A stretch of 64,000 nucleotides of DNA, from the IMG/VR virus record IMGVR_UViG_3300012956_000022, positions 4,201 to 68,200 of that record. One strand, given 5' to 3'. A model generated the notes under the pieces. That model was not told the DNA's origin and made no database searches. It saw nothing but the letters and a program-made list of their open reading frames with translations. The translations under genes were made by a program, and so were the position numbers. The DNA comes from a virus. Below, piece after piece: positions 4,154-13,604 of the stretch (its first letter is position 1; every line of letters starts with the position of its first letter).

Positions 4154-4355
4154 AATATAAATCATAATTTTTAATCTGTAATTTTATAGGTGTTAAGGAT
4201 AAAGTGCCTTACTATTGTGGTTATAGAGTGATGTCAATTGAAGCATCTACTGAAGGTTCACTTCTCTTTTATGATATATTTTCTATCTCTCCTATAAGAA
4301 TAGGTAAAATAGTACTGACAGAAGAAGATTATTTAACTTTAAAAACAATAATAAA

Positions 4356-4553
4356 ATGTTAAAAACAGAATTAAATATAGAAAGTTTTGTAAAACTTTCT
4401 CATGAGGATATATCCCGCATTCATGAGGCAGCTTATGCTGATGCAGTAATGAAACTTATGGATATTTCAGATTCATCTATTAATGAATTTGACCTTAATT
4501 TCTCTTACGAAATCATTTGCAAAGTAAGTATTAAACCTAAACCTAAATACTAA
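4356..4553 (+). CDS. Hypothetical protein
   Basis: 65-aa ORF with a TAATG overlap to the next gene. Confidence 0.65.
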   Translation: MLKTELNIESFVKLSHEDISRIHEAAYADAVMKLMDISDSSINEFDLNFSYEIICKVSIKPKPKY

Positions 4554-4927
4554 TGCCACAATTTCACGAAACCGGATATGGAAGAAAATTTCTTGAGGGA
4601 GATTTTCCTGATATGGTTAAACAGCTTACCAAAATAGCTGCTGCTTTAGAGGTAAAAGAGACAAAGAAGAATATTGATGAATTATATTTAGCTCTTTATG
4701 AAGAGTTAGATGTCTGGTATGTTTCTTTGCCTTTTATTATAGTACATAAAATTACAGGTATCAATCCTTTAGACTATCCTGAGCTTATAAAAATACCAGA
4801 AGATGAAGAAGACAAAGGAACTTCCAGAGAAGAGGCTATTGATTTAGCAAGAGATTCATGGAATAATTGTTCACTACAAGAAAAAATAGAATATCATGAA
4901 AGATACAAAGATGAGAGGCATTACTAA
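4553..4927 (+). CDS. Hypothetical protein
   Basis: 124-aa ORF, translationally coupled. Confidence 0.7.
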   Translation: MPQFHETGYGRKFLEGDFPDMVKQLTKIAAALEVKETKKNIDELYLALYEELDVWYVSLPFIIVHKITGINPLDYPELIKIPEDEEDKGTSREEAIDLARDSWNNCSLQEKIEYHERYKDERHY

Positions 4928-5120
4928 GAATTTTACCATGACAAGTATAAAAAGGTATCTGAAAGATCCTAATAGCTGTCCTCAATGTCAATCTCAAAGT
5001 CTCGTAGTAGATGAAGAATTTACAGAAGAGACAAAAGGGAGGGTAATCAGATGTCAGAGTTGTAATATTACTTTTTATGAGGTGTTTAAATTAATTTATA
5101 TCGAAAAAATACCAGAATGA
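4896..5120 (+). CDS. Small zinc-ribbon protein
   Basis: CPQC...CQSC pair; the true start may be a downstream ATG. Confidence 0.65.
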   Translation: MKDTKMRGITKNFTMTSIKRYLKDPNSCPQCQSQSLVVDEEFTEETKGRVIRCQSCNITFYEVFKLIYIEKIPE

Positions 5121-5154
5121 GGAATTCAAGATTAATCCAAAATGTATACCCAAA

Positions 5155-5358
5155 ATGAACAGTTATAAATTAAATGGCATGGCAGGACACTATTTCAGAC
5201 AGACCGTCTGCAAACACCTGAAAATCAGCCACACTGAAATCTATAAGACTCTGGAAAAAATCTTTCTGGATAATGTTGGAAATGTCATTATCGAAACCAA
5301 AGACGGTAAAAAATACCGGTTAACACTTACTGAGCATGAGAACACAAATCAGCAATAA
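5155..5358 (+). CDS. Hypothetical protein
   Basis: 67-aa ORF. Confidence 0.6.
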   Translation: MNSYKLNGMAGHYFRQTVCKHLKISHTEIYKTLEKIFLDNVGNVIIETKDGKKYRLTLTEHENTNQQ

Positions 5359-5923
5359 CAGACAGCAAACCGAAAAAGATGCAGAAATAGATGCCAGAGT
5401 GCTCCACCTTGCCAATCATGTGCTTTGCCTGCTGGGCAAAAGGATACTCCCTATCTACTTCTATTCACATAATCCTGAAGAGATGAACAGATGGCAGCAT
5501 AATATCTGCAGGCAGGCTCATATTCTTTGCTATATGTATCTCTACCTGTGGTTCGGAAAAGACTATGATTTGTCCTTTTACGAATCCATCTTTGAGGAAA
5601 CTGTCACAAAAAGCAGGTATGACCACAGTTGGGTGTTTCTTCAGCATAAAAGAGATGACAGTCTGATGTATCTGTGTGATGTGGCAAGAGTTTCAGAACA
5701 CATAGGATTAAAAAGAACAGCTTCCAATAATCCTGAATGTTTTCTTAAGGGCAGCCGGGAAATAACAGAAGAGAGAAGAAGGATAGATGTTGAAAACGTA
5801 TACATGGTTTCCAATGAGTACTACACAGGGAAAACAGTGCAGGAGATTTTCGAGGAAGTTACCATGCTTCTTTATCATGCAAGGGCTAACCCGGGATTTG
5901 TACACGATTTATATAATCAATAA
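5336..5923 (+). CDS. Hypothetical protein, possible Cys-His-Asp (transglutaminase/papain-like) fold
   Basis: Spacing of ICRQAH...DHSWVFL...YLCDV resembles a catalytic triad (inference). Confidence 0.6.
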   Translation: MRTQISNNRQQTEKDAEIDARVLHLANHVLCLLGKRILPIYFYSHNPEEMNRWQHNICRQAHILCYMYLYLWFGKDYDLSFYESIFEETVTKSRYDHSWVFLQHKRDDSLMYLCDVARVSEHIGLKRTASNNPECFLKGSREITEERRRIDVENVYMVSNEYYTGKTVQEIFEEVTMLLYHARANPGFVHDLYNQ

Positions 5924-5935
5924 AAAACAACTAAA

Positions 5936-6685
5936 ATGAAAGAAGAAAAACAAATTCACAAAAGCTACTTTGATGCTCTTCCAAATGAGATAAAAATGGA
6001 GTTTGCAAATGCAGTTCAGGACCTTAACAATCAGATTGTAAAAGTGGCTGATGAAGAGGGCATCCATGTAGCAATCAGTTCTGTCCATAAATTCGTGGAT
6101 GATGAGGTGGAGAAGGCGAAAATAAAATACAGCGAGGAAGGTAAGGCAATCTCCTGCAAAAGGGGCTGCAGTTTCTGCTGTTACATACATGTGGACATAT
6201 CTCCTCCTGAGGCCATGAGAGTGCTCTCTAAGATAAATCTTACAGAAAAACAGGTAGAGCATCTGGAGAGACAGAAAGGATATAACCTGAACAACTGGAC
6301 AGAGTTGCCTTATGCTCACAGAAAGTGCGTATTCCTTGAGAATGGAGAATGCAGTGTCTATGAAGACAGACCACTCTCCTGCAGAAAATACATGGTGGTG
6401 AATGAGCCTGAAATATGCAACACGGAACATGAGAATAATGTAACCACAGTCGCTGCAGCAGGAATTGTGGAAGCCATGTGTATGTCCTCTGCACTTGCCT
6501 TCAGTTCGGCCAGTATGGCACCCCTTCTTTTGACAGCCTGGAACAGCAAACCGGAAGAGATAAAAAAAAGAAGTGAAGAGTATCAGCAAAGAGTCAACAA
6601 AGATAAAAACAAGGAAAATGGATATGACGAAACAGGAGGAGCTGAAAGTGATGCTCCTGAAACAGAAACCGAGGTACTGTCATAA
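5936..6685 (+). CDS. YkgJ/FliB-like cysteine-cluster (CxxxCxxCC, Zn/Fe-S) protein
   Basis: Signature CKRGCSFCC...CVFLENGECSVYEDRPLSCRKY. Confidence 0.85.
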   Translation: MKEEKQIHKSYFDALPNEIKMEFANAVQDLNNQIVKVADEEGIHVAISSVHKFVDDEVEKAKIKYSEEGKAISCKRGCSFCCYIHVDISPPEAMRVLSKINLTEKQVEHLERQKGYNLNNWTELPYAHRKCVFLENGECSVYEDRPLSCRKYMVVNEPEICNTEHENNVTTVAAAGIVEAMCMSSALAFSSASMAPLLLTAWNSKPEEIKKRSEEYQQRVNKDKNKENGYDETGGAESDAPETETEVLS

Positions 6686-6839
6686 AAGCAAGAATATCTA
6701 CCTGCTTGTTTCTGCATGCAGGATAAAGATAAACGGAGAGTACAGGGATGGCTATATCTATGTAAATGAAAATCTCCCTGAAGAGGTCTTTGTAAGAGAA
6801 AAGCAGGATTTTGAAGATAATTTCGTGATGTTGGACTAA
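6618..6839 (+). CDS. DUF1653-like small protein
   Basis: Pattern RYCHKSKNIY...YIY...VFVREKQDFEDNF; start taken at ATG 6618. Confidence 0.6.
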   Translation: MDMTKQEELKVMLLKQKPRYCHKSKNIYLLVSACRIKINGEYRDGYIYVNENLPEEVFVREKQDFEDNFVMLD

Positions 6840-6960
6840 AGTTGGGTGTTTGGCGAAGAAGCCGAAACCAAAAGTTAAATCGAAGTACAAAACTTAAAAA
6901 TTAGAACAATATGTCAAACGAAGAACAAAACGGCTTTTTTGCCAAACCCGTGTTAGCACC
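6837..6960 (-). mobile_element. attC-like site 1 (outer core degenerate: TAAA instead of TAAC)
   Basis: Arms GGGTGTTTGGCGAAGAAGCCG (6844-6864) and CGGCTTTTTTGCCAAACCC (6931-6949), then core GTTAGCACC (6952-6960). Confidence 0.75.
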
Positions 6961-7180
6961 AGTTAATTTTGATGCTATTCACGAAGCACGTAGAAATTTC
7001 ATCTATTCAAATAATAGATACCCAACTGTAATAGTTATGCACCCTGCCGATGGTGAAAAATTCATTGACTTAATGCACAAAGAATTTGGTTATTGTGCTA
7101 TGCCTAATTTGATGAAATTTCAAGGGATGCAGATGATAAGGTCATTCGATGTCGAAGAGGGCAAGTGGTGTCTTTATTAA
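6911..7180 (+). CDS. Cassette A gene, hypothetical protein
   Basis: 89-aa ORF. Its ATG lies in the attC1 loop and its stop is 2 nt before GGTGCTAAC. Confidence 0.7.
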   Translation: MSNEEQNGFFAKPVLAPVNFDAIHEARRNFIYSNNRYPTVIVMHPADGEKFIDLMHKEFGYCAMPNLMKFQGMQMIRSFDVEEGKWCLY

Positions 7181-7182
7181 TT

Positions 7183-7318
7183 GGTGCTAACGGTTTGCGG
7201 CTTGTAGCTGAAAGGGATTTAGAAGCACAATATTTCAACTTTGCACTACTGCCGATTAGAACCATAAATGATGAATGTAGCATATCTGCCCTTTTTGCTA
7301 CAAACCGCTGTTACCTGC
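7183..7318 (-). mobile_element. attC-like site 2
   Basis: GGTGCTAAC-GGTTT-GCGGCTTGTAGC-TGAAAGGG ... CCCTTTTT-GCTACAAACCGC-T-GTTACCTGC. Confidence 0.85.
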
Positions 7319-7355
7319 TGGGCGGATTATCAGTAGGAAATTTAAAAACAACAAA

Positions 7356-7889
7356 ATGAATAAGTACAAAGAAATTGAATTTGGGTTCGGAAATATCGAA
7401 TCAGCAGTAAAAGAATTGAAAAGCCATAATGAATTAGTTTGCGGCTCATTTAATGGTCAAATGTTATATTCTGACATTGACGATTTAGATTCAGCTTATG
7501 TAAAAATTACAGGTAAAACAAAAGCCGAATGTGACGAAGCCGAAAGAATTAAACACGAAGAATATGAAGAGCAACAAAGAAAGCACAAAGAAGCTATACC
7601 CAAACTTACAAAAGAATGGATTGAAAAAGGCAATACCATTTTAGACGAAAAGTATCGTGAATTATGGGCTAAATGTGTTCCTATCAGACTTGGTGATTTG
7701 TATCAAGGAATGGAATTAGGTAACTGCCTTGAAATAGTTGAACAGCTAAACAATGGTAAAACTGTTGAAGAAGTAAAACCACTAATTGAAAATCAAGGTC
7801 ATTCTGGAATGTCTTTTGGCTTGGTTTGTTCAATGATAAAATCTTTCTGTGATAGAGGCGAGGAATTTGTCAATTATGCACGGTCGTAG
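7356..7889 (+). CDS. Cassette B gene, conserved hypothetical phage protein
   Basis: 177-aa ORF with a QGHSGMSF motif. Bracketed by GTTACCTGC (7310) and its complement GCAGGTAAC (7894). Confidence 0.85.
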   Translation: MNKYKEIEFGFGNIESAVKELKSHNELVCGSFNGQMLYSDIDDLDSAYVKITGKTKAECDEAERIKHEEYEEQQRKHKEAIPKLTKEWIEKGNTILDEKYRELWAKCVPIRLGDLYQGMELGNCLEIVEQLNNGKTVEEVKPLIENQGHSGMSFGLVCSMIKSFCDRGEEFVNYARS

Positions 7890-7893
7890 CCTT

Positions 7894-8110
7894 GCAGGTA
7901 ACGCTTAACAGATTTATTTAGTTTTAAAAGTATTATTATGACAGACTTACAAAAAAAAGCAAAAGAAATTTATAGAAGAATGACAAGTTATGCTGACTAT
8001 TCAGAAATGAATGGCATAAGTAAAAAATGGATTTTAGGGCAAATAGAAGCAGGACTTGAAGAATACCACAAGTCCGAACTTTTAAAATTGAATAAATCTG
8101 ATGTTATAAG
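7894..8110 (-). mobile_element. attC-like site 3 with a protein-coding loop
   Basis: GCAGGTAAC, then 23-bp arms 7909-7931 and 8078-8100 with two G.T wobbles, a 146-nt loop, and core GTTATAAG (8103-8110). Confidence 0.8.
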
Positions 8111-8189
8111 TTCGGTTTCTGAATCAGGCATACGTCTTGATTTGGATAAAATATTAAATGCTAAAGATACATTTAAAAAGATATTATAA
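7938..8189 (+). CDS. Cassette C gene, encoded largely within the attC3 loop
   Basis: 83-aa ORF that reads through the hairpin arm and core as LKLNKSDVISS. Confidence 0.7.
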   Translation: MTDLQKKAKEIYRRMTSYADYSEMNGISKKWILGQIEAGLEEYHKSELLKLNKSDVISSVSESGIRLDLDKILNAKDTFKKIL

Positions 8190-8238
8190 ACAGAAACTGA
8201 CTTATGTTATACGCTGGGCGGTGTTGAAAACGAAAATT

Positions 8239-8484
8239 ATGAATACATACGAAATTGAAAGAAAATTGGGAGACAAAGCAGACAAATGGGAACTGCATAG
8301 TTTACAAACAGAAAACAGGGAATTAAAAAGCCATGTTAACGAACTTGAAAGAAAGGTTGGATATTTAGAAAGCACGAATATTAATAGATACTATGCACTT
8401 GAAAGGCTTTTTAATATGATGGCAGAACACCCCCAATTTTCTGACTTGCAAAACGAAATATATCAATTGAAAGGCAGTTTGTAG
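8239..8484 (+). CDS. Cassette D gene, coiled-coil protein
   Basis: ATG 8239 after an A-rich leader. Shares its flanks (GCTGGGCGG at the 5' side, TAGCCTTGC at the 3' side) with cassette B. Confidence 0.7.
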   Translation: MNTYEIERKLGDKADKWELHSLQTENRELKSHVNELERKVGYLESTNINRYYALERLFNMMAEHPQFSDLQNEIYQLKGSL

Positions 8485-8494
8485 CCTTGCTGCT

Positions 8495-8716
8495 AAAAGT
8501 AAATACCCTGCATATTTTGTTGGTTGGGTTGGTTTTAATTGCTCTTATAGTGGAAAATGGTTTGGTGGCTTTGCAGGAGAAACAAACACCAAAATAGGAA
8601 CGGTAAGAGATTACCAAACTGAAGCAATAAACAATGTGGCAAAGCAAGTTGAAAAAATGAAAGGTGTAATATTCCAAAACAACCCTTATTATGAATTGGA
8701 ACTACCACCAAACAGT
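8495..8716 (+). pseudogene. Internal fragment of a Dam-like DNA adenine methyltransferase
   Basis: Start-less frame KYPAYFVGWVGFNCSYSGKWFGGFAG...RDYQTEAINNVAKQ...KGVIF...YYELELPPNS. It lacks the N-terminal SAM-binding motif and stops just before the expected DPPY. Confidence 0.7.
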
Positions 8717-8717
8717 A

Positions 8718-11700
8718 CTATTTTAACGCATCAGAGCTTTTAACCCGCTTCAGCATATCCTGATAGGACTCTCCTTTTTTCTTTGCCGGTATTTTCTGAC
8801 TGACTATCTTATTGATTTCATCAGGATCTTCTATGCTTTCTTTAAGCTGTCCTCTCAGTTTTGCTCTTATCTGGGAAATTTCATATTTGGCCTTGTGCTC
8901 ATCACTCCATGCCCATTTGTCTATAGGCAGTGGAACAAACTGTCTTTCCATCTGTGTTTCAAATCCGAAAGAAAGCGGGTTTGCTATCAGCGGAGGTAAG
9001 AATGTTTTGAGTGCCTGATTTACCACCTTATGCTCTCCGGCATGCTCCCCTGTAAGTATCACATCTTTTCCTTCCATGAACTCCTCGAAGTTCTTACCCA
9101 GTTTCAGACAATCAGAAAACAGCCTGATGATGGACATATCCGTTATCGTCCTGTGCATTTCATACAGGTTCAGGTACTGCACGAGGGAGGAGGATATCTG
9201 CGTGAACCGGTTAATGAAGAAATTATGTGCCTTCCTTCTTGCAGAGTCCTTATCATCATCGTCATCCCAGGCAAGCATTTTTGTCATAAGCATGAGTGCA
9301 AGAAGGGCATACATGACAGCCATATCCTGAATGTTGGCTTTCCAGTTTGCCATATCCTGTCTGGTAAATTCCCCTGTAATCTGAAGCCTGTCTCCGGCAA
9401 CCTTTCCTGAATCGGTTTCTATTATCTTACCTTTGCCTAAAATTCTCCCTGCAAGGTTTACAGGCATTCCTGCCATTTTTCTGAAAAGCATCTTATTCAT
9501 GAAAATCATCTCCTCCAGGAAATCCATGGGGCTTGTGGCATCACTGTACATTTTGGAAAAGGCTGCACCGGCAATACCTCCAACCAGTAATCCTGCCGGC
9601 CCTATGGTAAAGGCAAGTGCACCTCCTCCAATCATGGCACCTGCTCCGGGAGTAAGACTTCTGTATCTTCCCTTGAACCCTTTTGTTCCGGTAAGTATAT
9701 TATCCTGCTTTACTGCAAATCTCTTATAGAACTCTCTTGGAAGCCAGGTCTTGAACATCATCAGCAGGGTTCCTAAATGGGTGGACTTGGCCATCATGCC
9801 TGACAGCTGGTCATAATCACCGTGTGTGTCCTTTATCACCGCACTGAGCTTTGTCCTGAAATCAAGGTACTCCTGTCCTGTATTGTCTTCCCAGTTGTCT
9901 ATGTTCTTCTGTACCCCCCTGTATTCATCTTTCAGCTTGAAACCATGCTCTGTCAGTTCCATTGCATCCCATACGTTACCCTTTACTCCGTTATTGTCCT
10001 CTATTTCCGTATCCCTCAGTATGGCAACCATCAGAGGTATCTGGTTATAGGTCTCTGTCTTTGACTGTATAAAGAACGGAGCAAGTTTGCTGACACCTGA
10101 AATACCAGATTTTACGGATGCCTTCTGAAGCTCATTTTTAGAGTCCTGAAGCACATCCCAGTTTTCCATCATTCTCTGTGCAAGAATTGCCCTTGCAAGA
10201 CCACGGCCTTTCCCAAGCCTTTTCATGCTGTCTGAGTACATCAGGTCAGATAATGTCACCGTATCTATATACTCTGAAGGAAACCACATCCCTGAGGCTG
10301 CTATGGCGGCATTTGCAATCTGCCCTTCCACCACGTTTGTAATACCTGAGCTTACATTATAAGCCATCCCCTTAAAACGTATAAAGTTCAGCAGCATATC
10401 CACTATGCCGGATACAGACATATCTGCACCCAGTCTTTTGCTCATCTTTCTCACCTCCTCAAGGTCATCCTGTGAAAGGTTTGGATCTTCCATGAGCCTG
10501 TCAAGACGTTGCTTTATTTTTTTCTCTTCCTCTGTAAAGAGTTTTCCATCCCACTTTCTTCCCTTGGTGATGTATCCTATTGTTCTGGATAGACGGTCTT
10601 CAGCATCCTTGTCAGGTGTTTCTACATCCCTTTTCAGAAATCCATACTGCTTTCTCAGGTCTTTTTCTCCAAGCACCACCCTTCTGAACCAATTGTCAAA
10701 CTGTTTGTTTGCATGTGTCCTGAAACCATCATATCTTGTCTTTCCATACAGTGCACTATTGTATATCTCATCACCGGTGTTCTGTGTAGCCACATTTCTT
10801 ATCTGTTCGTAGTGCCTTTTTATAAGCTCCATGAACGGCAACACCTGCTGTCTTGCAGAATATTCAGCAGCCATTTTGGTATGCAGTTTTAATATCATAG
10901 GAAGGTCAAAGGATTGTTCTTTGGCTATCTGATGCTGTGTGTATGCCCATATTATCTTTCCAACAGGAACTCTCTTGTCAGGATACTGTTCCAGCAGACT
11001 GTCTTTGGTCAGGCCGGGAATGTATCTGTCAAGCAAGCTCACCATGGCATCCGTATTCATTCTTGTGAGATTGATATGTGTCCCTCTTGTGATTTTAGGT
11101 ATTCTCCTCTGGGTAAGAGATATGTAATCCTGAAGAAACTCCATCGCACTAAGATTGAATGCATCCTGTATCTTATTGATGTTGTTTTTCAGGAAAGAAT
11201 CATTGACAGTGTATTCAGGAACTCCTGTCACGGGGTTCACTTTAGCATAACTCATCTGGTCCTGTATCCTCACTCCAATCACAGTCTTGAACCAGTCTAT
11301 GAATCTTCTGTAGGACTCGGAAAGTATCTGAAGCAGGGTGATGTCAGGAGTGTTCAGCAAATACTCCGCAAAGGTCTTCTTCTGAAAAGGTACCGTAGTG
11401 TCCAGGTTCAGTCTTTTATCCTCAGGACTGTACTGTTCCCGTATCATGGTAGTAGCCTCCTTGGCTATATCATAAAACTTCATGAGCACATCGTTGTCTT
11501 CTATGGCCTCATACTTTGAATCATAGTAGCCAAAGTCAGCTCCGGTTTCCCTGTTGTTACGCAAAGGAATCTGTATATTGTATCTCAGTTTCGGAAAGTA
11601 TTCAGTTTCAAAACCAACTCTGGCAGGTGCATCTGTCCTGATATGTTCAGCAGTCAGAAAAGGATTGTTTTCTGCTTCCCATACCTTTATTCTGGCAATC

Positions 11701-13604
11701 TCAAAAGTGTTGAGTGCCGCAGTACTGTTTACACCGGCATCCTCCATCACCTGCTTTATATACTGGCTTTTCTGCACCTTATATTCCTGAAACTTCTGAA
11801 GCTGGCTCTCCACTATCCTTTCAAAATACTTTTCTCCCACTATGCTTTTTACATACTTTTCATACTCCTCTATCTCTCCCTGTGTATAGTTGAATTTTCC
11901 ATCTGACAAATCCTGAAAATCAGGATGGCCGGTTACTGCAGAAAGTCTGGCAGGATCTATGGTCTCCGAGTTTTCCCTAAGCCATTTGTTTCTTTTGGCA
12001 ACAGCTTTTCTTGTCTCTGAAATCACATCATTGATATCAAGCCACTCTACTGCCTTTTTCATGTCAGACCTGAACTTGGACTCCATGCTGCCCTTTATCT
12101 GAAACCACTCATGAGAAAACTTGTCGCAGATGTTGCTGAGAAACTCTCCTTTTTTAGTTACCTGCCTCATCCAGTCAAAGGATATACCATTTAATCCAAT
12201 TATACCAAGCTTGTACTTACCTCCCTCAAGCTTCTCCACCTCCTTGACTACATCCTCCATTATGTCATCCATTCTTGCAGTAAGGTTCTCTGAATAGGAA
12301 AGAGATTCCCTCATGGCATCTTCCAGGACTTTTCTTGCCAGCTGCGGCAATGTACCGTTGTGGGAAAATATCCCTGAAGTGATGTCCATTATCATCATGT
12401 CTATCCAAGTGGCATCAGCAAGGCCTTTTCCCGCCCCTGTTATCTCCGCATAGGTGAATTTCTTGCCATCATACATCTTTTGTATCATGGTGTTGTTGTT
12501 GTAGACATCTTCCAGTGCCTTTTCTTCCTGGTGTCTCAACTGGTTTTCCATCAGCCTTACCCTGTCTGCCCAATCTGCAAATGACTTTATCATTCCTTCT
12601 GACAGCAGGAACCTGCCCTCATGGAACATGTCCTCCTTTGAAAAGATAGGGTGGTTTTCAGCATCCTCCAGCCTGAAGTTGTTCATGGCATTAATGAACT
12701 GTATGATATTCCTCGCTTCTGCAAGGTCTTCAGGGTGTTTTGACTGTATAAGCTTCTCCAGCCTGCCTATTTCCTTCTCTATATAGGGGGCTATAATATG
12801 GGCACTCTTTACAGTCTGTTTTTTCAGTTCATTTATCTCTTCACGAAGTCCCGGCTCACCTTTCTCTTCGTTACCATAAATGTATTCCTGAAGGGTATTC
12901 TTTTCTCTGATGGCCTCCTCATAGGCAACCTCATCTCCACGCAGCTTTGGCAATGCCGCATTTATTGCAGACAATCTTTTGTATGCTGTACTCAGCAGTT
13001 TTTCTTTCAGCAACACAAGATGTGCAAGTCCCTTTCTTTCAGGTGCCTTTGGATCTTCCTGTGACATAAAGTCCTCTGAGTCTTCTTCTGCACTCTCTTC
13101 CTCTGTATCCTGAAACAGTCTGAAGAATACCTCACTTCCGTCAGTAGGCTGCTGAACCTCCTCTCCGTCTTCCACATCACCGGCAGCATAAAAGAACCCG
13201 TCCTCTATACCCATCTCCCTTTCCTTAGCCGCCTTTTCCGCAGCTCCCTCTTCCTTTATCTGCTCTTCAGCATCCATTGCAAGTTTCTCATACTCTACCT
13301 GATTGAGTATCCCAAGCTGTGCCCTTGTGGGTTTTATGGACACATAGACATTTCCACTTTGACTGACTTCTACATAAAACACCTGCCCTACAGCTACAGA
13401 GCTGTTTATGCTCTTATTCAGATGGTCAGCAAGTGCTTTGGCTATTCCCGGCAATTGTGTCCTACTTGTAATTCTGGACTTTATATTTGGAGGAGGAAGT
13501 ATCACCTGTATGTAATCACTGTCCTTCGTGTAGGAAAGCCAGGGCCTGTTACCTACTGCACTCTCAACTGCCGTCTTTATTCCCGTATCACAATATTTTG
13601 ACAT
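8718..13604 (-). CDS. Giant virion cargo/ejection protein (crAss-like)
   Basis: 1628 aa, helical, with C-terminal hydrophobic segments; lies immediately downstream of the virion RNAP as in crAss-like phages. Confidence 0.8.
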   Translation of the reverse strand: MSKYCDTGIKTAVESAVGNRPWLSYTKDSDYIQVILPPPNIKSRITSRTQLPGIAKALADHLNKSINSSVAVGQVFYVEVSQSGNVYVSIKPTRAQLGILNQVEYEKLAMDAEEQIKEEGAAEKAAKEREMGIEDGFFYAAGDVEDGEEVQQPTDGSEVFFRLFQDTEEESAEEDSEDFMSQEDPKAPERKGLAHLVLLKEKLLSTAYKRLSAINAALPKLRGDEVAYEEAIREKNTLQEYIYGNEEKGEPGLREEINELKKQTVKSAHIIAPYIEKEIGRLEKLIQSKHPEDLAEARNIIQFINAMNNFRLEDAENHPIFSKEDMFHEGRFLLSEGMIKSFADWADRVRLMENQLRHQEEKALEDVYNNNTMIQKMYDGKKFTYAEITGAGKGLADATWIDMMIMDITSGIFSHNGTLPQLARKVLEDAMRESLSYSENLTARMDDIMEDVVKEVEKLEGGKYKLGIIGLNGISFDWMRQVTKKGEFLSNICDKFSHEWFQIKGSMESKFRSDMKKAVEWLDINDVISETRKAVAKRNKWLRENSETIDPARLSAVTGHPDFQDLSDGKFNYTQGEIEEYEKYVKSIVGEKYFERIVESQLQKFQEYKVQKSQYIKQVMEDAGVNSTAALNTFEIARIKVWEAENNPFLTAEHIRTDAPARVGFETEYFPKLRYNIQIPLRNNRETGADFGYYDSKYEAIEDNDVLMKFYDIAKEATTMIREQYSPEDKRLNLDTTVPFQKKTFAEYLLNTPDITLLQILSESYRRFIDWFKTVIGVRIQDQMSYAKVNPVTGVPEYTVNDSFLKNNINKIQDAFNLSAMEFLQDYISLTQRRIPKITRGTHINLTRMNTDAMVSLLDRYIPGLTKDSLLEQYPDKRVPVGKIIWAYTQHQIAKEQSFDLPMILKLHTKMAAEYSARQQVLPFMELIKRHYEQIRNVATQNTGDEIYNSALYGKTRYDGFRTHANKQFDNWFRRVVLGEKDLRKQYGFLKRDVETPDKDAEDRLSRTIGYITKGRKWDGKLFTEEEKKIKQRLDRLMEDPNLSQDDLEEVRKMSKRLGADMSVSGIVDMLLNFIRFKGMAYNVSSGITNVVEGQIANAAIAASGMWFPSEYIDTVTLSDLMYSDSMKRLGKGRGLARAILAQRMMENWDVLQDSKNELQKASVKSGISGVSKLAPFFIQSKTETYNQIPLMVAILRDTEIEDNNGVKGNVWDAMELTEHGFKLKDEYRGVQKNIDNWEDNTGQEYLDFRTKLSAVIKDTHGDYDQLSGMMAKSTHLGTLLMMFKTWLPREFYKRFAVKQDNILTGTKGFKGRYRSLTPGAGAMIGGGALAFTIGPAGLLVGGIAGAAFSKMYSDATSPMDFLEEMIFMNKMLFRKMAGMPVNLAGRILGKGKIIETDSGKVAGDRLQITGEFTRQDMANWKANIQDMAVMYALLALMLMTKMLAWDDDDDKDSARRKAHNFFINRFTQISSSLVQYLNLYEMHRTITDMSIIRLFSDCLKLGKNFEEFMEGKDVILTGEHAGEHKVVNQALKTFLPPLIANPLSFGFETQMERQFVPLPIDKWAWSDEHKAKYEISQIRAKLRGQLKESIEDPDEINKIVSQKIPAKKKGESYQDMLKRVKSSDALK

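Follow-up and report, generated by a model that had tools for sequence, protein, structure and literature searches.

What kind of element sets a row of small genes between long hairpins in the genome of a crAss-like phage? The question is raised by positions 6840-8717 of a 64,000-nucleotide stretch of the IMG/VR virus record IMGVR_UViG_3300012956_000022 (positions 4,201 to 68,200 of that record; hereafter the window), where an earlier note, made from the letters alone, had proposed an integron-like array of attC gene cassettes devoid of an integrase. Comparison of the locus with other phage and bacterial DNA supports this proposal: homologues of its genes carry the same kind of flanks elsewhere, the opposite of what the note had named as speaking against it, and the context of these genes switches precisely at the hairpin cores. 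We consider it probable that this segment is an integron-type (attC-like) cassette cluster that encodes no recombinase itself and that a crAss-like phage of Flavobacteriia has acquired.

A family of attC-type hairpin sites

As described in the earlier note, three long imperfect hairpins bounded by TAAC (TAAA in the first) and GTTA are present in the window, where they lie clustered and co-oriented on the + strand between 6837 and 8106 (sites A, B and C; Table 1). The arms of site A (6848-6864 and 6931-6947) are 88% complementary over 17 nt, those of site B (7197-7216 and 7289-7308) 85% over 20 nt and those of site C (7909-7931 and 8078-8100) 91% over 23 nt. A covariance model built from 19 hairpins (16 from Muminvirus and the three of the window) scores sites A and B at 69.0 and 79.6 bits and matches only the three sites in the 64 kb, the next match being one of 17.5 bits (E = 0.72) at 8107-8239; it matches no further site in the rest of the 68.2-kb record, and Rfam returned only chance microRNA-like matches for positions 5000-10000. 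The segment 8107-8209 was considered as a fourth hairpin site and rejected, as its stem is the pairing of the two ends of unit 3 and the closing TAAC is absent.

Because the training set of the model included the window sites, which makes these scores partly circular, independent support comes from plain sequence similarity, for sites A and B. In a sensitive blastn search against phage records, site A is 74% identical to DNA of Flavobacterium Muminvirus, with homology stopping just past GTGTTAG. The match takes in the intergenic spacer of two methyltransferase genes together with the opening codons of the second gene; since the reading frames differ between the two sequences, it is the DNA that is conserved and not the peptide. 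Site A is also 97-99% identical to hairpins of many IMG/VR contigs, with the exception of its first 13 bases, which are unlike those of its near-identical relatives, and a 20-mer taken from it occurs in at least 119 IMG/VR contigs. The stem base of site B is common to the hairpins located 5' of g2, the gene of unit 2, in four other contigs (L268, L270, L274 and L284).

Sequence comparison establishes these sites as members of one family. The alignment of the 19 hairpins has 15 consensus pairs, eight of them with compensatory changes, and TAA(C)G and TGTTA are invariant. In the consensus fold, a 5-bp outer box (TAACG with TGTTA), whose inner pair is G.T in all 19 hairpins, is followed by a 5-nt bulge on the 5' side and then by the inner stem. 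All 15 sites of the 38-kb Muminvirus genome are recovered by the model; the early region of this phage consists of about 15 units, each made of TAACG, hairpin, TGTTA, a variable end, one or more genes, the complementary end and TAAC, with the single exception of unit gp016-gp013, whose ends do not match. Applied to 80 IMG/VR loci (705,441 bases), the model yielded 213 matches at E <= 0.01, and a strict scan of the same loci for TAACG...TGTTA with paired ends found 252 sites versus one in reversed-sequence controls. The logo of 229 unique sites reads A-T-T-G-C-NNN-TAACG ... TGTTA-NNN-G-C-A-G-T, with T (95%) facing G (83%) at the seventh position beyond the cores. Site lengths are mostly 70-130 nt (a few are below 70 and some reach about 208), all sites have one orientation, and the commonest cassette genes, found in 40 of the 80 loci, encode methyltransferases.

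It is in the pairing of their ends that these cassettes display the hallmark of integron cassettes, in the window as in the family: the core that starts a cassette is complementary to the cassette's own end and not to the partner core of the adjacent hairpin. The ends of unit 1 (6952-6967 with 7176-7191) are 94% complementary over 16 nt and those of unit 2 (7310-7323 with 7889-7902) 86% over 14 nt, while those of unit 3 (8103-8121 with 8191-8205) pair, as judged by eye, over about 15-19 nt with one mismatch and one indel. Across 171 cassettes of the family, the two ends of one cassette match at 7.5 of 10 positions beyond the cores, with a perfect run of at least 5 in 74% of them; the corresponding values for the two flanks of one hairpin are 3.3 of 10 and 2.4%. 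Both statements of the earlier note on this point, namely that each inter-hairpin segment carries its own complementary ends and that the cores of any one hairpin match only in their TAAC and GTTA part, are borne out. Comparison of homologues shows, moreover, that the two ends co-vary: g2 homologues in different lineages are bounded by five different, mutually compensating end pairs, and among 18 loci the ends match at 11 or more of 14 positions in eight and weakly (8-9 of 14) in two, with no pair found within the search margins in the other eight.

A 642-kb uncultured phage (LR756502.1, our locus L003) has three matches to the model at 1751-2519 (34.9, 26.8 and 21.7 bits) and an 87% match to window positions 7293-7362, where the g2 unit begins. 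Jumbo phages are therefore also within reach of the cassette pool.

Movement of whole units

The earlier note had expected relatives to gain and lose whole units at the core boundary, and comparison of sequences establishes that contexts do switch exactly there. Three Muminvirus genomes share one methyltransferase cassette end (...gccacTAAC), beyond which they continue with three different hairpin-plus-gene units; in the phage tooticki, exactly one such unit is absent. Positions 6850-7192 of the window (hairpin A, gene g1 and the closing TAAC) are 96.5% identical in an unrelated 22.6-kb viral contig (L087), and both flanks diverge beyond TAACG. The homology of g2 stops at ...GGTAAC in all six aligned copies (the window and five contigs), after which the other contigs present five different continuations, one of which is not a hairpin; on the 5' side, the similarity extends through TGTTA into the hairpin base. 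As contexts change at TAAC/G and the hairpin goes with its downstream gene, the moving unit is the hairpin plus the downstream gene and the junction lies within TAAC/G, that is, units appear to be gained and lost by crossover in an AAC/GTT core. Logan contigs from four sequencing runs are consistent with such modules: other samples contain no more than hairpin A, portions of hairpins B and C, the cassette of g2 and the methyltransferase (Dam) fragment that lies at the right end of the insert, and the homology of these contigs ends at 6955/6, 7188, 7903-5, 8107 and 8717. A lack of coverage elsewhere in the window in those runs carries no evidential weight. Short-sided joints in the contigs (7330 to 7884, 7930 to 8059 and others) stem from cassettes of other organisms whose ends are the same.

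The mechanism that we infer from these comparisons is as follows. On the + strand, a unit consists of a G, an imperfect hairpin, TGTTA, a variable end of 6-10 nt, a gene, the complementary end and TAAC. Once the unit is a free circle, its two ends would pair and thereby extend the hairpin into one long folded site; a tyrosine recombinase would bind the folded single + strand, cut the 5' core within TAAC/G and exchange one strand with a second site. Whole units, each a hairpin with its downstream gene, would thereby be inserted or excised. Expression of the genes probably proceeds from the loops of the hairpins, where an A-rich leader and an ATG are provided.

Hairpins that accompany shuffled phage genes might also have a purely regulatory role. 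They could be modules comprising promoter, translation start and terminator, shuffled without any site-specific recombinase by the homologous or single-strand-annealing recombination of phages acting at conserved linkers. A precedent for such an arrangement is provided by the PeSL elements of T4-type phages, reportedly described by Arbiol et al. in 2010 as 'mobile regulatory cassettes' whose shuffling was ascribed to homologous recombination at promoter-stem-loop repeats; there, as here, small accessory phage genes lie between conserved stem-loop intergenic elements and are shuffled among genomes. The A-rich leader and ATG of the downstream gene held by the loops would fit this explanation, as would the fusion of one hairpin-encoded leader peptide to unrelated proteins, the recurrence of hairpin A at 97-99% identity before different genes, the lack of a tyrosine recombinase in most array-bearing phages, and the ERF-like, exonuclease and NinG/Rap-like genes that are common neighbours of the arrays (named in part by eye and in part from record annotation, including PF05766 'recombination protein'). 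Homologous exchange leaves unexplained, however, both the co-variation of the two ends of one cassette and breakpoints that fall exactly at TAAC/G. It is in these two features, and in the linked tyrosine recombinase described below, that the present arrays differ from PeSL elements.

A four-base boundary motif beside a hairpin is also found in the IS200/IS605 family, in which a hairpin end is cleaved beside a short target, TTAC for instance, and a Y1 HUH transposase carries out the movement. The units could accordingly be non-autonomous single-strand transposons of this kind, with TAAC as their boundary motif and with the pairing of the far unit end to the foot of the hairpin resembling guide pairing. 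We regard this as very unlikely: Y1_Tnp (PF01797) was found in none of five array-bearing phage records, no such family is conspicuous among the 40 largest clusters of open reading frames (ORFs) of the 80 loci (named by eye), each unit has one hairpin in place of the two of such a transposon, and the arrays run strictly in tandem and in one orientation, a tyrosine recombinase being located at one end.

Bacterial arrays, gene polarity and the candidate recombinase

Searched in GTDB genomes, the generic logo pattern matches 120 or more stretches, the majority of them from Bacteroidota (Flavobacterium, Chitinophagales, Pedobacter, Kaistella, Bacteroidales); the other matches are in Treponemataceae, Leptospira, Chlorobiaceae and Ignavibacteria. 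Arrays of at least 10 sites are found in Flavobacterium qiangtangense, which, like Bacteroidetes bacterium UKL13-3, has the classical arrangement of gene followed by site. One array of F. qiangtangense (L261, G005:C21:155564-167308) comprises at least 13 cassettes in classical polarity, among them those for a beta-lactamase-fold protein (PF00144), a CN hydrolase and a RibD_C protein, and ends in a 72-aa integrase remnant. A Treponemataceae genome contains a 157-kb array (G001:C5:769017-926158) with 39 or more pattern sites, each about 145 nt long.

The orientation of the genes relative to their sites is opposite in the two sets. Among cassettes with an ORF of at least 50 aa, 152 of 177 from 120 bacterial loci are antisense to the site and 25 are sense; in 119 viral loci, 249 of 255 are sense and 6 antisense. 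Phage cassettes thus have mirror polarity, with the hairpin first and the gene second. This distribution bears on two of the alternatives. Given that 152 of 177 bacterial cassettes are antisense, a role as promoter or start codon cannot be the conserved function of the hairpins, which, together with the placement of a tyrosine recombinase at the polarity-consistent end in 13 of 13 loci, renders the regulatory explanation unlikely. The counts also weigh on the possibility that the structure acts at the level of RNA, as an mRNA segment closed by pairing of its ends whose 5' hairpin controls processing, stability or translation, mobility being secondary. The folded strand is indeed the coding strand in phages (249 of 255 cassettes), and both the G.T that all 19 hairpins have at their inner core pair and the T opposite G outside the cores would be at home in RNA. 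In bacterial arrays, however, the same strand is antisense to the genes, so that the structure would not be in the mRNA, and gain and loss precise to the unit and an adjacent recombinase call for a mechanism at the DNA level; we consider an RNA-level explanation quite unlikely.

We return, then, to site-specific recombination and to the enzyme. Ten of the 120 bacterial loci and three viral loci contain homologues of a Xer-like integrase. Of 15 integrase loci examined, one was without a site and one was a duplicate; in all 13 distinct loci that remain (three of them viral contigs), sequence comparison places the integrase or its remnant on the 3' side of the array, as defined by site orientation. 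In UKL13-3, a 309-aa tyrosine recombinase directly precedes five gene-plus-site cassettes and scores 227 bits against NF040815 (cut-off 220) and 208.7 bits against TIGR02249 (cut-off 265); in F. qiangtangense, the 72-aa C-terminal remnant lies at the matching end of the array. The array-linked integrases of relatives score 208.7, 170.3, 126.1 and 133.3 bits against TIGR02249, all below 265. A bona fide IntI (TIGR02249, 450 bits) is present in one of five genomes, that of Treponemataceae, on a different contig from the array. This canonical IntI lies at C3:97196-98137 and a Xer-like integrase (399-aa frame) at C5:931910-932710. The window contains no IntI with its specific domain beside an attI, as a complete integron would. 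In the viral contig L271, about 55 nt devoid of a hairpin separate the last TAAC from the start codon of the integrase; this stretch is where an attI-like site would be. In Muminvirus filifjonk9-1 (L004, 1397-1660), the array ends in ...TTCTTATAAC, followed by TACAAT and no hairpin, beside a 65-aa protein with the look, by eye, of a ribbon-helix-helix DNA binder. This array end could mark the attI-like end in integrase-less phages.

The window record itself contains no integron integrase, in keeping with the earlier note, and the scan of the rest of the record that the note had called for was equally empty: tblastn with five integrases gave nothing below E 0.39, and no integrase remnant is left. 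As the record encodes no recombinase, any movement would occur in trans, with the enzyme supplied by a host platform or a co-infecting phage. The note had envisaged a shufflable array served by an IntI-type enzyme of the host; movement of units is upheld by the comparisons, but the enzyme found in relatives is Xer-like and not a canonical IntI.

A number of observations weigh against the reading of the locus as an integron-type cluster. The record, of which CheckV estimates the completeness at 72% only, has no match to PF00589, the tyrosine recombinase family, and neither have four of five other array-bearing phage records, the recombinase-less ones including three at 96-100% CheckV completeness and the complete Muminvirus genome; since most array-bearing phages lack a recombinase, the arrays may be inherited passively most of the time. 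The array-linked integrases are devoid of some 37 residues found in bona fide IntI, which we take to be the IntI-specific domain, responsible for recognition of extrahelical attC bases. The gene polarity of the phage cassettes is the reverse of the classical one, in which a gene precedes its own attC. Site C is the weakest of the three, at 26.8 bits and E 0.015 in spite of its membership in the training set, and predicted DNA folding energies favour the + strand at site A (-14.7 kcal/mol, z -2.35, versus -10.9 for the other strand) and not at site B (-16.9 kcal/mol, z -2.35, versus -17.5). Contigs of the four runs contain neither a 7191-to-7903 excision joint nor a circle junction, rare forms being invisible in contigs. 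The recurrence of hairpin A before unrelated genes is not explained by a single crossover at TAAC/G, and may bear on how cassettes are made. Our model, finally, does not match the Polaribacter phage P12002L, a published phage with comparable sites (see below) whose hairpins are a short variant.

We give an even chance to a more specific proposal: that the array of the window is one outlying member of a separate integron-like system, not found described in the literature covered, that Bacteroidota have in common with their phages. Arrays are present as well in genomes labelled Treponemataceae, Chlorobiaceae and Ignavibacteria. In this proposal the system would be run by a dedicated Xer-like recombinase devoid of the IntI-specific domain, and phages would use cassettes of mirror polarity, with the start codon in the loop of the site, to trade accessory and anti-defence genes (DNA methyltransferases, for example), even into crAss-like phages.

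The array in its phage and among known systems

The coordinates of the insert, its sites, units and genes are presented in Table 1.

Table 1. Features of the cassette cluster, in window positions
Feature	Positions	Strand	Description
Whole foreign insert (cassette array and Dam fragment)	6840-8717	+	1.9 kb; based on CpG observed-to-expected ratio, ORF calls and contig homology ends
attC-type site A	6837-6955	+	5' core TAAA at 6837-6840, degenerate, overlapping the backbone stop codon; 3' core TGTTA, with GTTA at 6952-6955
g1	6911-7180	+	89 aa; first 14 codons from hairpin loop and 3' arm of site A
Unit 1 body	6952-7191	+	own complementary ends GTTAGCACCAGTTAAT ... ATTAATTGGTGCTAAC
attC-type site B	7188-7313	+	intact cores TAACG ... 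TGTTA: TAAC at 7188-7191, GTTA at 7310-7313
Unit 2 body	7310-7902	+	ends GTTACCTGCTGGGC ... GCCTTGCAGGTAAC around g2
g2	7356-7889	+	177 aa
attC-type site C	7899-8106	+	intact cores TAAC at 7899-7902, GTTA at 8103-8106; 146-nt loop
g3	7938-8189	+	putative ORF, 83 aa; mostly within the loop of site C, reading through 3' arm and core
Unit 3 body	8103-8205	+	GTTATAAGTTCGGTTTCTG ... CAGAAACTGACTTAT; scar: closing TAAC and next hairpin missing; direct repeat D13
Unit 4, hairpin-less	8206-8497	+	GTTATACGCTGGGCGG ... g4 ... GTAGCCTTGCTGCTAAA; closing core TAAA
g4	8239-8484	+	81 aa, coiled-coil-like; weak coiled-coil Pfam matches only
D12-class (Dam) adenine methyltransferase fragment, start-less	8496-8743	+	stop-to-stop frame 8471-8743

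That the host of the insert is a crAss-like phage, as the earlier note had stated, is confirmed by its major capsid protein, portal and terminase, which match PHROGs with E values of 1e-163 or lower; the capsid protein shares 64% identity with that of Flavobacterium phage FpV4 and also matches Bacteroides crAss-like phages. The insert is bounded on the left by the stop codon of the backbone ORF 6573-6839 and on the right by that of a convergent 1628-aa gene on the minus strand (8718-13604), which places it at the 3' end of the phage's + strand gene block, the convergent position already pointed out in the note. The note's impression by eye that the array is richer in CG dinucleotides is likewise confirmed, the observed-to-expected ratio of CpG being 0.77 in 6840-8717 versus 0.34-0.38 in the backbone upstream and downstream. 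A foreign origin of the insert is indicated by this difference and by the lack of such sites in FpV4, the closest cultured relative, and in two distant crAss-like contigs; nor did our model find any in the three IMG/VR loci that match the 1628-aa protein at 27-28%. A megablast search of positions 4500-11000 against phages gave no match, and no close relatives of the phage backbone were found. We note that the backbone is strongly depleted in CpG with GpC near 1, which may reflect avoidance of a restriction or methylation target of the host, and that a backbone ORF a short way 5' of the array (5936-6685, 249 aa) encodes a CxxCxxCC putative zinc- or iron-chelating domain (PF03692, E 1.3e-8).

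The array is decaying. Site A has TAAA in place of the expected TAAC, so that both cores are kept by sites B and C only. At the junction of units 3 and 4 the closing TAAC and a whole hairpin are absent, and CTTAT runs straight into GTTATACG. Unit 4 closes with TAAA, next to a methyltransferase fragment that has lost both of its ends. Excision would be conceivable for unit 2 at most, and this with an enzyme in trans only. The ends of unit 4 resemble those of unit 2 (direct repeats D3, 88%, and D15, 82%) and pair poorly with each other, matching by eye at 7 of 14 positions. Of the alternation of hairpins and small genes described in the earlier note, g1 and g2 fit; the third segment (8103-8205) has only the 3' end of g3 and no gene of its own, most of g3 and its start lying within the loop of site C.

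Searches of Pfam and PHROGs returned no family for g1 to g4. The loop of site A contains the ATG of g1, a gene of which L087 holds a 94% identical copy; the same loop and 3' arm (6911-6955) encode the leader peptide MSNEEQNGFFAKPVLA..., which elsewhere is fused in frame to unrelated proteins such as a phosphatase-like ORF with an HCxxGxxR motif (L014, 13162-13210). The family of g2 comprises 1323 proteins at E <= 0.001 (75-95% identity for the 120 best), has no Pfam domain, and includes proteins 94-97% identical to g2 in three other contigs (L268-L270). Its AlphaFold model, of high confidence (predicted local distance difference test, pLDDT, 94.4), combines a small beta hairpin with a bundle of long helices; Foldseek found no match in the PDB at E <= 0.001, and the best VIA-align hit, a designed helical repeat at Z = 6.7, is not convincing. 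In an activated-sludge run (X1), contigs with the g2 cassette have a depth of 123-136 and those of the phage backbone one of 7-9, a difference of about 15-fold. The Dam fragment, whose homology to other DNA, contig pieces included, spans 8496-8717, matches a Vibrio phage D12 methyltransferase in the same orientation; by tblastn, it is 57% identical to L002 over 75 aa. A split methyltransferase on the minus strand was considered and rejected, all matches being co-oriented with the + strand of the window.

What the family shares with classical integrons are sites that fold as imperfect palindromes, with AAC/GTT cores and an unpaired stretch between outer and inner stem, cassettes whose own ends pair only in the circle, and tandem co-oriented arrays with a recombinase at one end and many cassettes of one attC type; sedentary chromosomal integrons are known for near-identical attC sites of this sort (the Vibrio-type repeats). 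It differs from them in a partner enzyme without the IntI-specific domain, in phage genes that follow the site and are co-directional with the strand of recombinogenic type, in a longer outer stem (10 bp and a conserved T.G at position 7), and in that no attI or cassette promoter (Pc) is defined. The involvement of a Xer-type enzyme would also have parallels. In the CTX phage, a Xer-family recombinase integrates a folded single-stranded hairpin by exchange of one strand, and both this phage and the pdif modules of Acinetobacter plasmids rely on the housekeeping XerC/D and a dif-like 28-bp site. A Xer-family tyrosine recombinase that acts on the site of a mobile element would be common to these elements and to the present arrays, in which, however, the enzyme gene is dedicated and array-linked and the sites are hairpins mostly of 70-130 nt in one orientation, not the 28-bp dif-like sites in alternating orientation of pdif modules.

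The window feature is thus an array of the CALIN type (a cluster of attC sites that has no integron-integrase) that departs from the classical integron in its gene polarity and likely enzyme. The main-text passages of Qi, Rajabal, Ghaly, Tetu and Gillings (2023, Front Microbiol, PMC9892861) describe 17 phage CALINs, an association they call infrequent; these are, like the array of the window, integrase-less rows of attC-bounded cassettes in virulent phages. One of them is carried by the virulent Polaribacter phage P12002L, which has a flavobacterial host and methyltransferase cassettes, and whose methyltransferase-spacer hairpins have TAACG...TGTTA cores as in the window. According to the same passages, IntI1 recombined five of six tested phage attC sites via the bottom strand, including one (P12002L_attC2) of the two P12002L sites tested. 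Among the phages compared here, P12002L is the one whose attC sites have been detected in print. Unlike the 17 CALINs as presented there, the present site family is widespread: one 20-mer taken from it is found in 119 or more IMG/VR contigs, and 15 of its sites fill one 38-kb Muminvirus genome; mirror polarity, start codons in loops and a Xer-like partner are not described in those passages, and 'crAss' is absent from the main text of that paper. The paper that describes Muminvirus mentions hairpins, palindromes, cassettes and integrases zero times each, and in the relevant passages of the IntegronFinder 2 survey a complete integron in Bacteroidetes is named only for Salinibacter ruber. At the level of listings, abstracts and passages, the literature searched, integron surveys (PMC9024848, PMC4889954, PMC8618304) included, provided no description of mirror-polarity arrays or of a Xer-like partner in Bacteroidota phages, a point on which the supplements of PMC9892861 and PMC7077304 may bear.

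The locus implies that a crAss-like phage can acquire ready-made integron-type cassettes, and ties this phage to a very large cassette pool held by Bacteroidota chromosomes and many unrelated phages. The combination of mirror polarity and loop start codons offers a testable idea of how promoter-less phage cassettes may be expressed. Should the Xer-like enzyme prove to be the partner of these sites, the system would be a natural experiment on integron-like recombination without the IntI-specific domain and on the making of cassettes, and standard integron finders, which need that domain, would miss such platforms.

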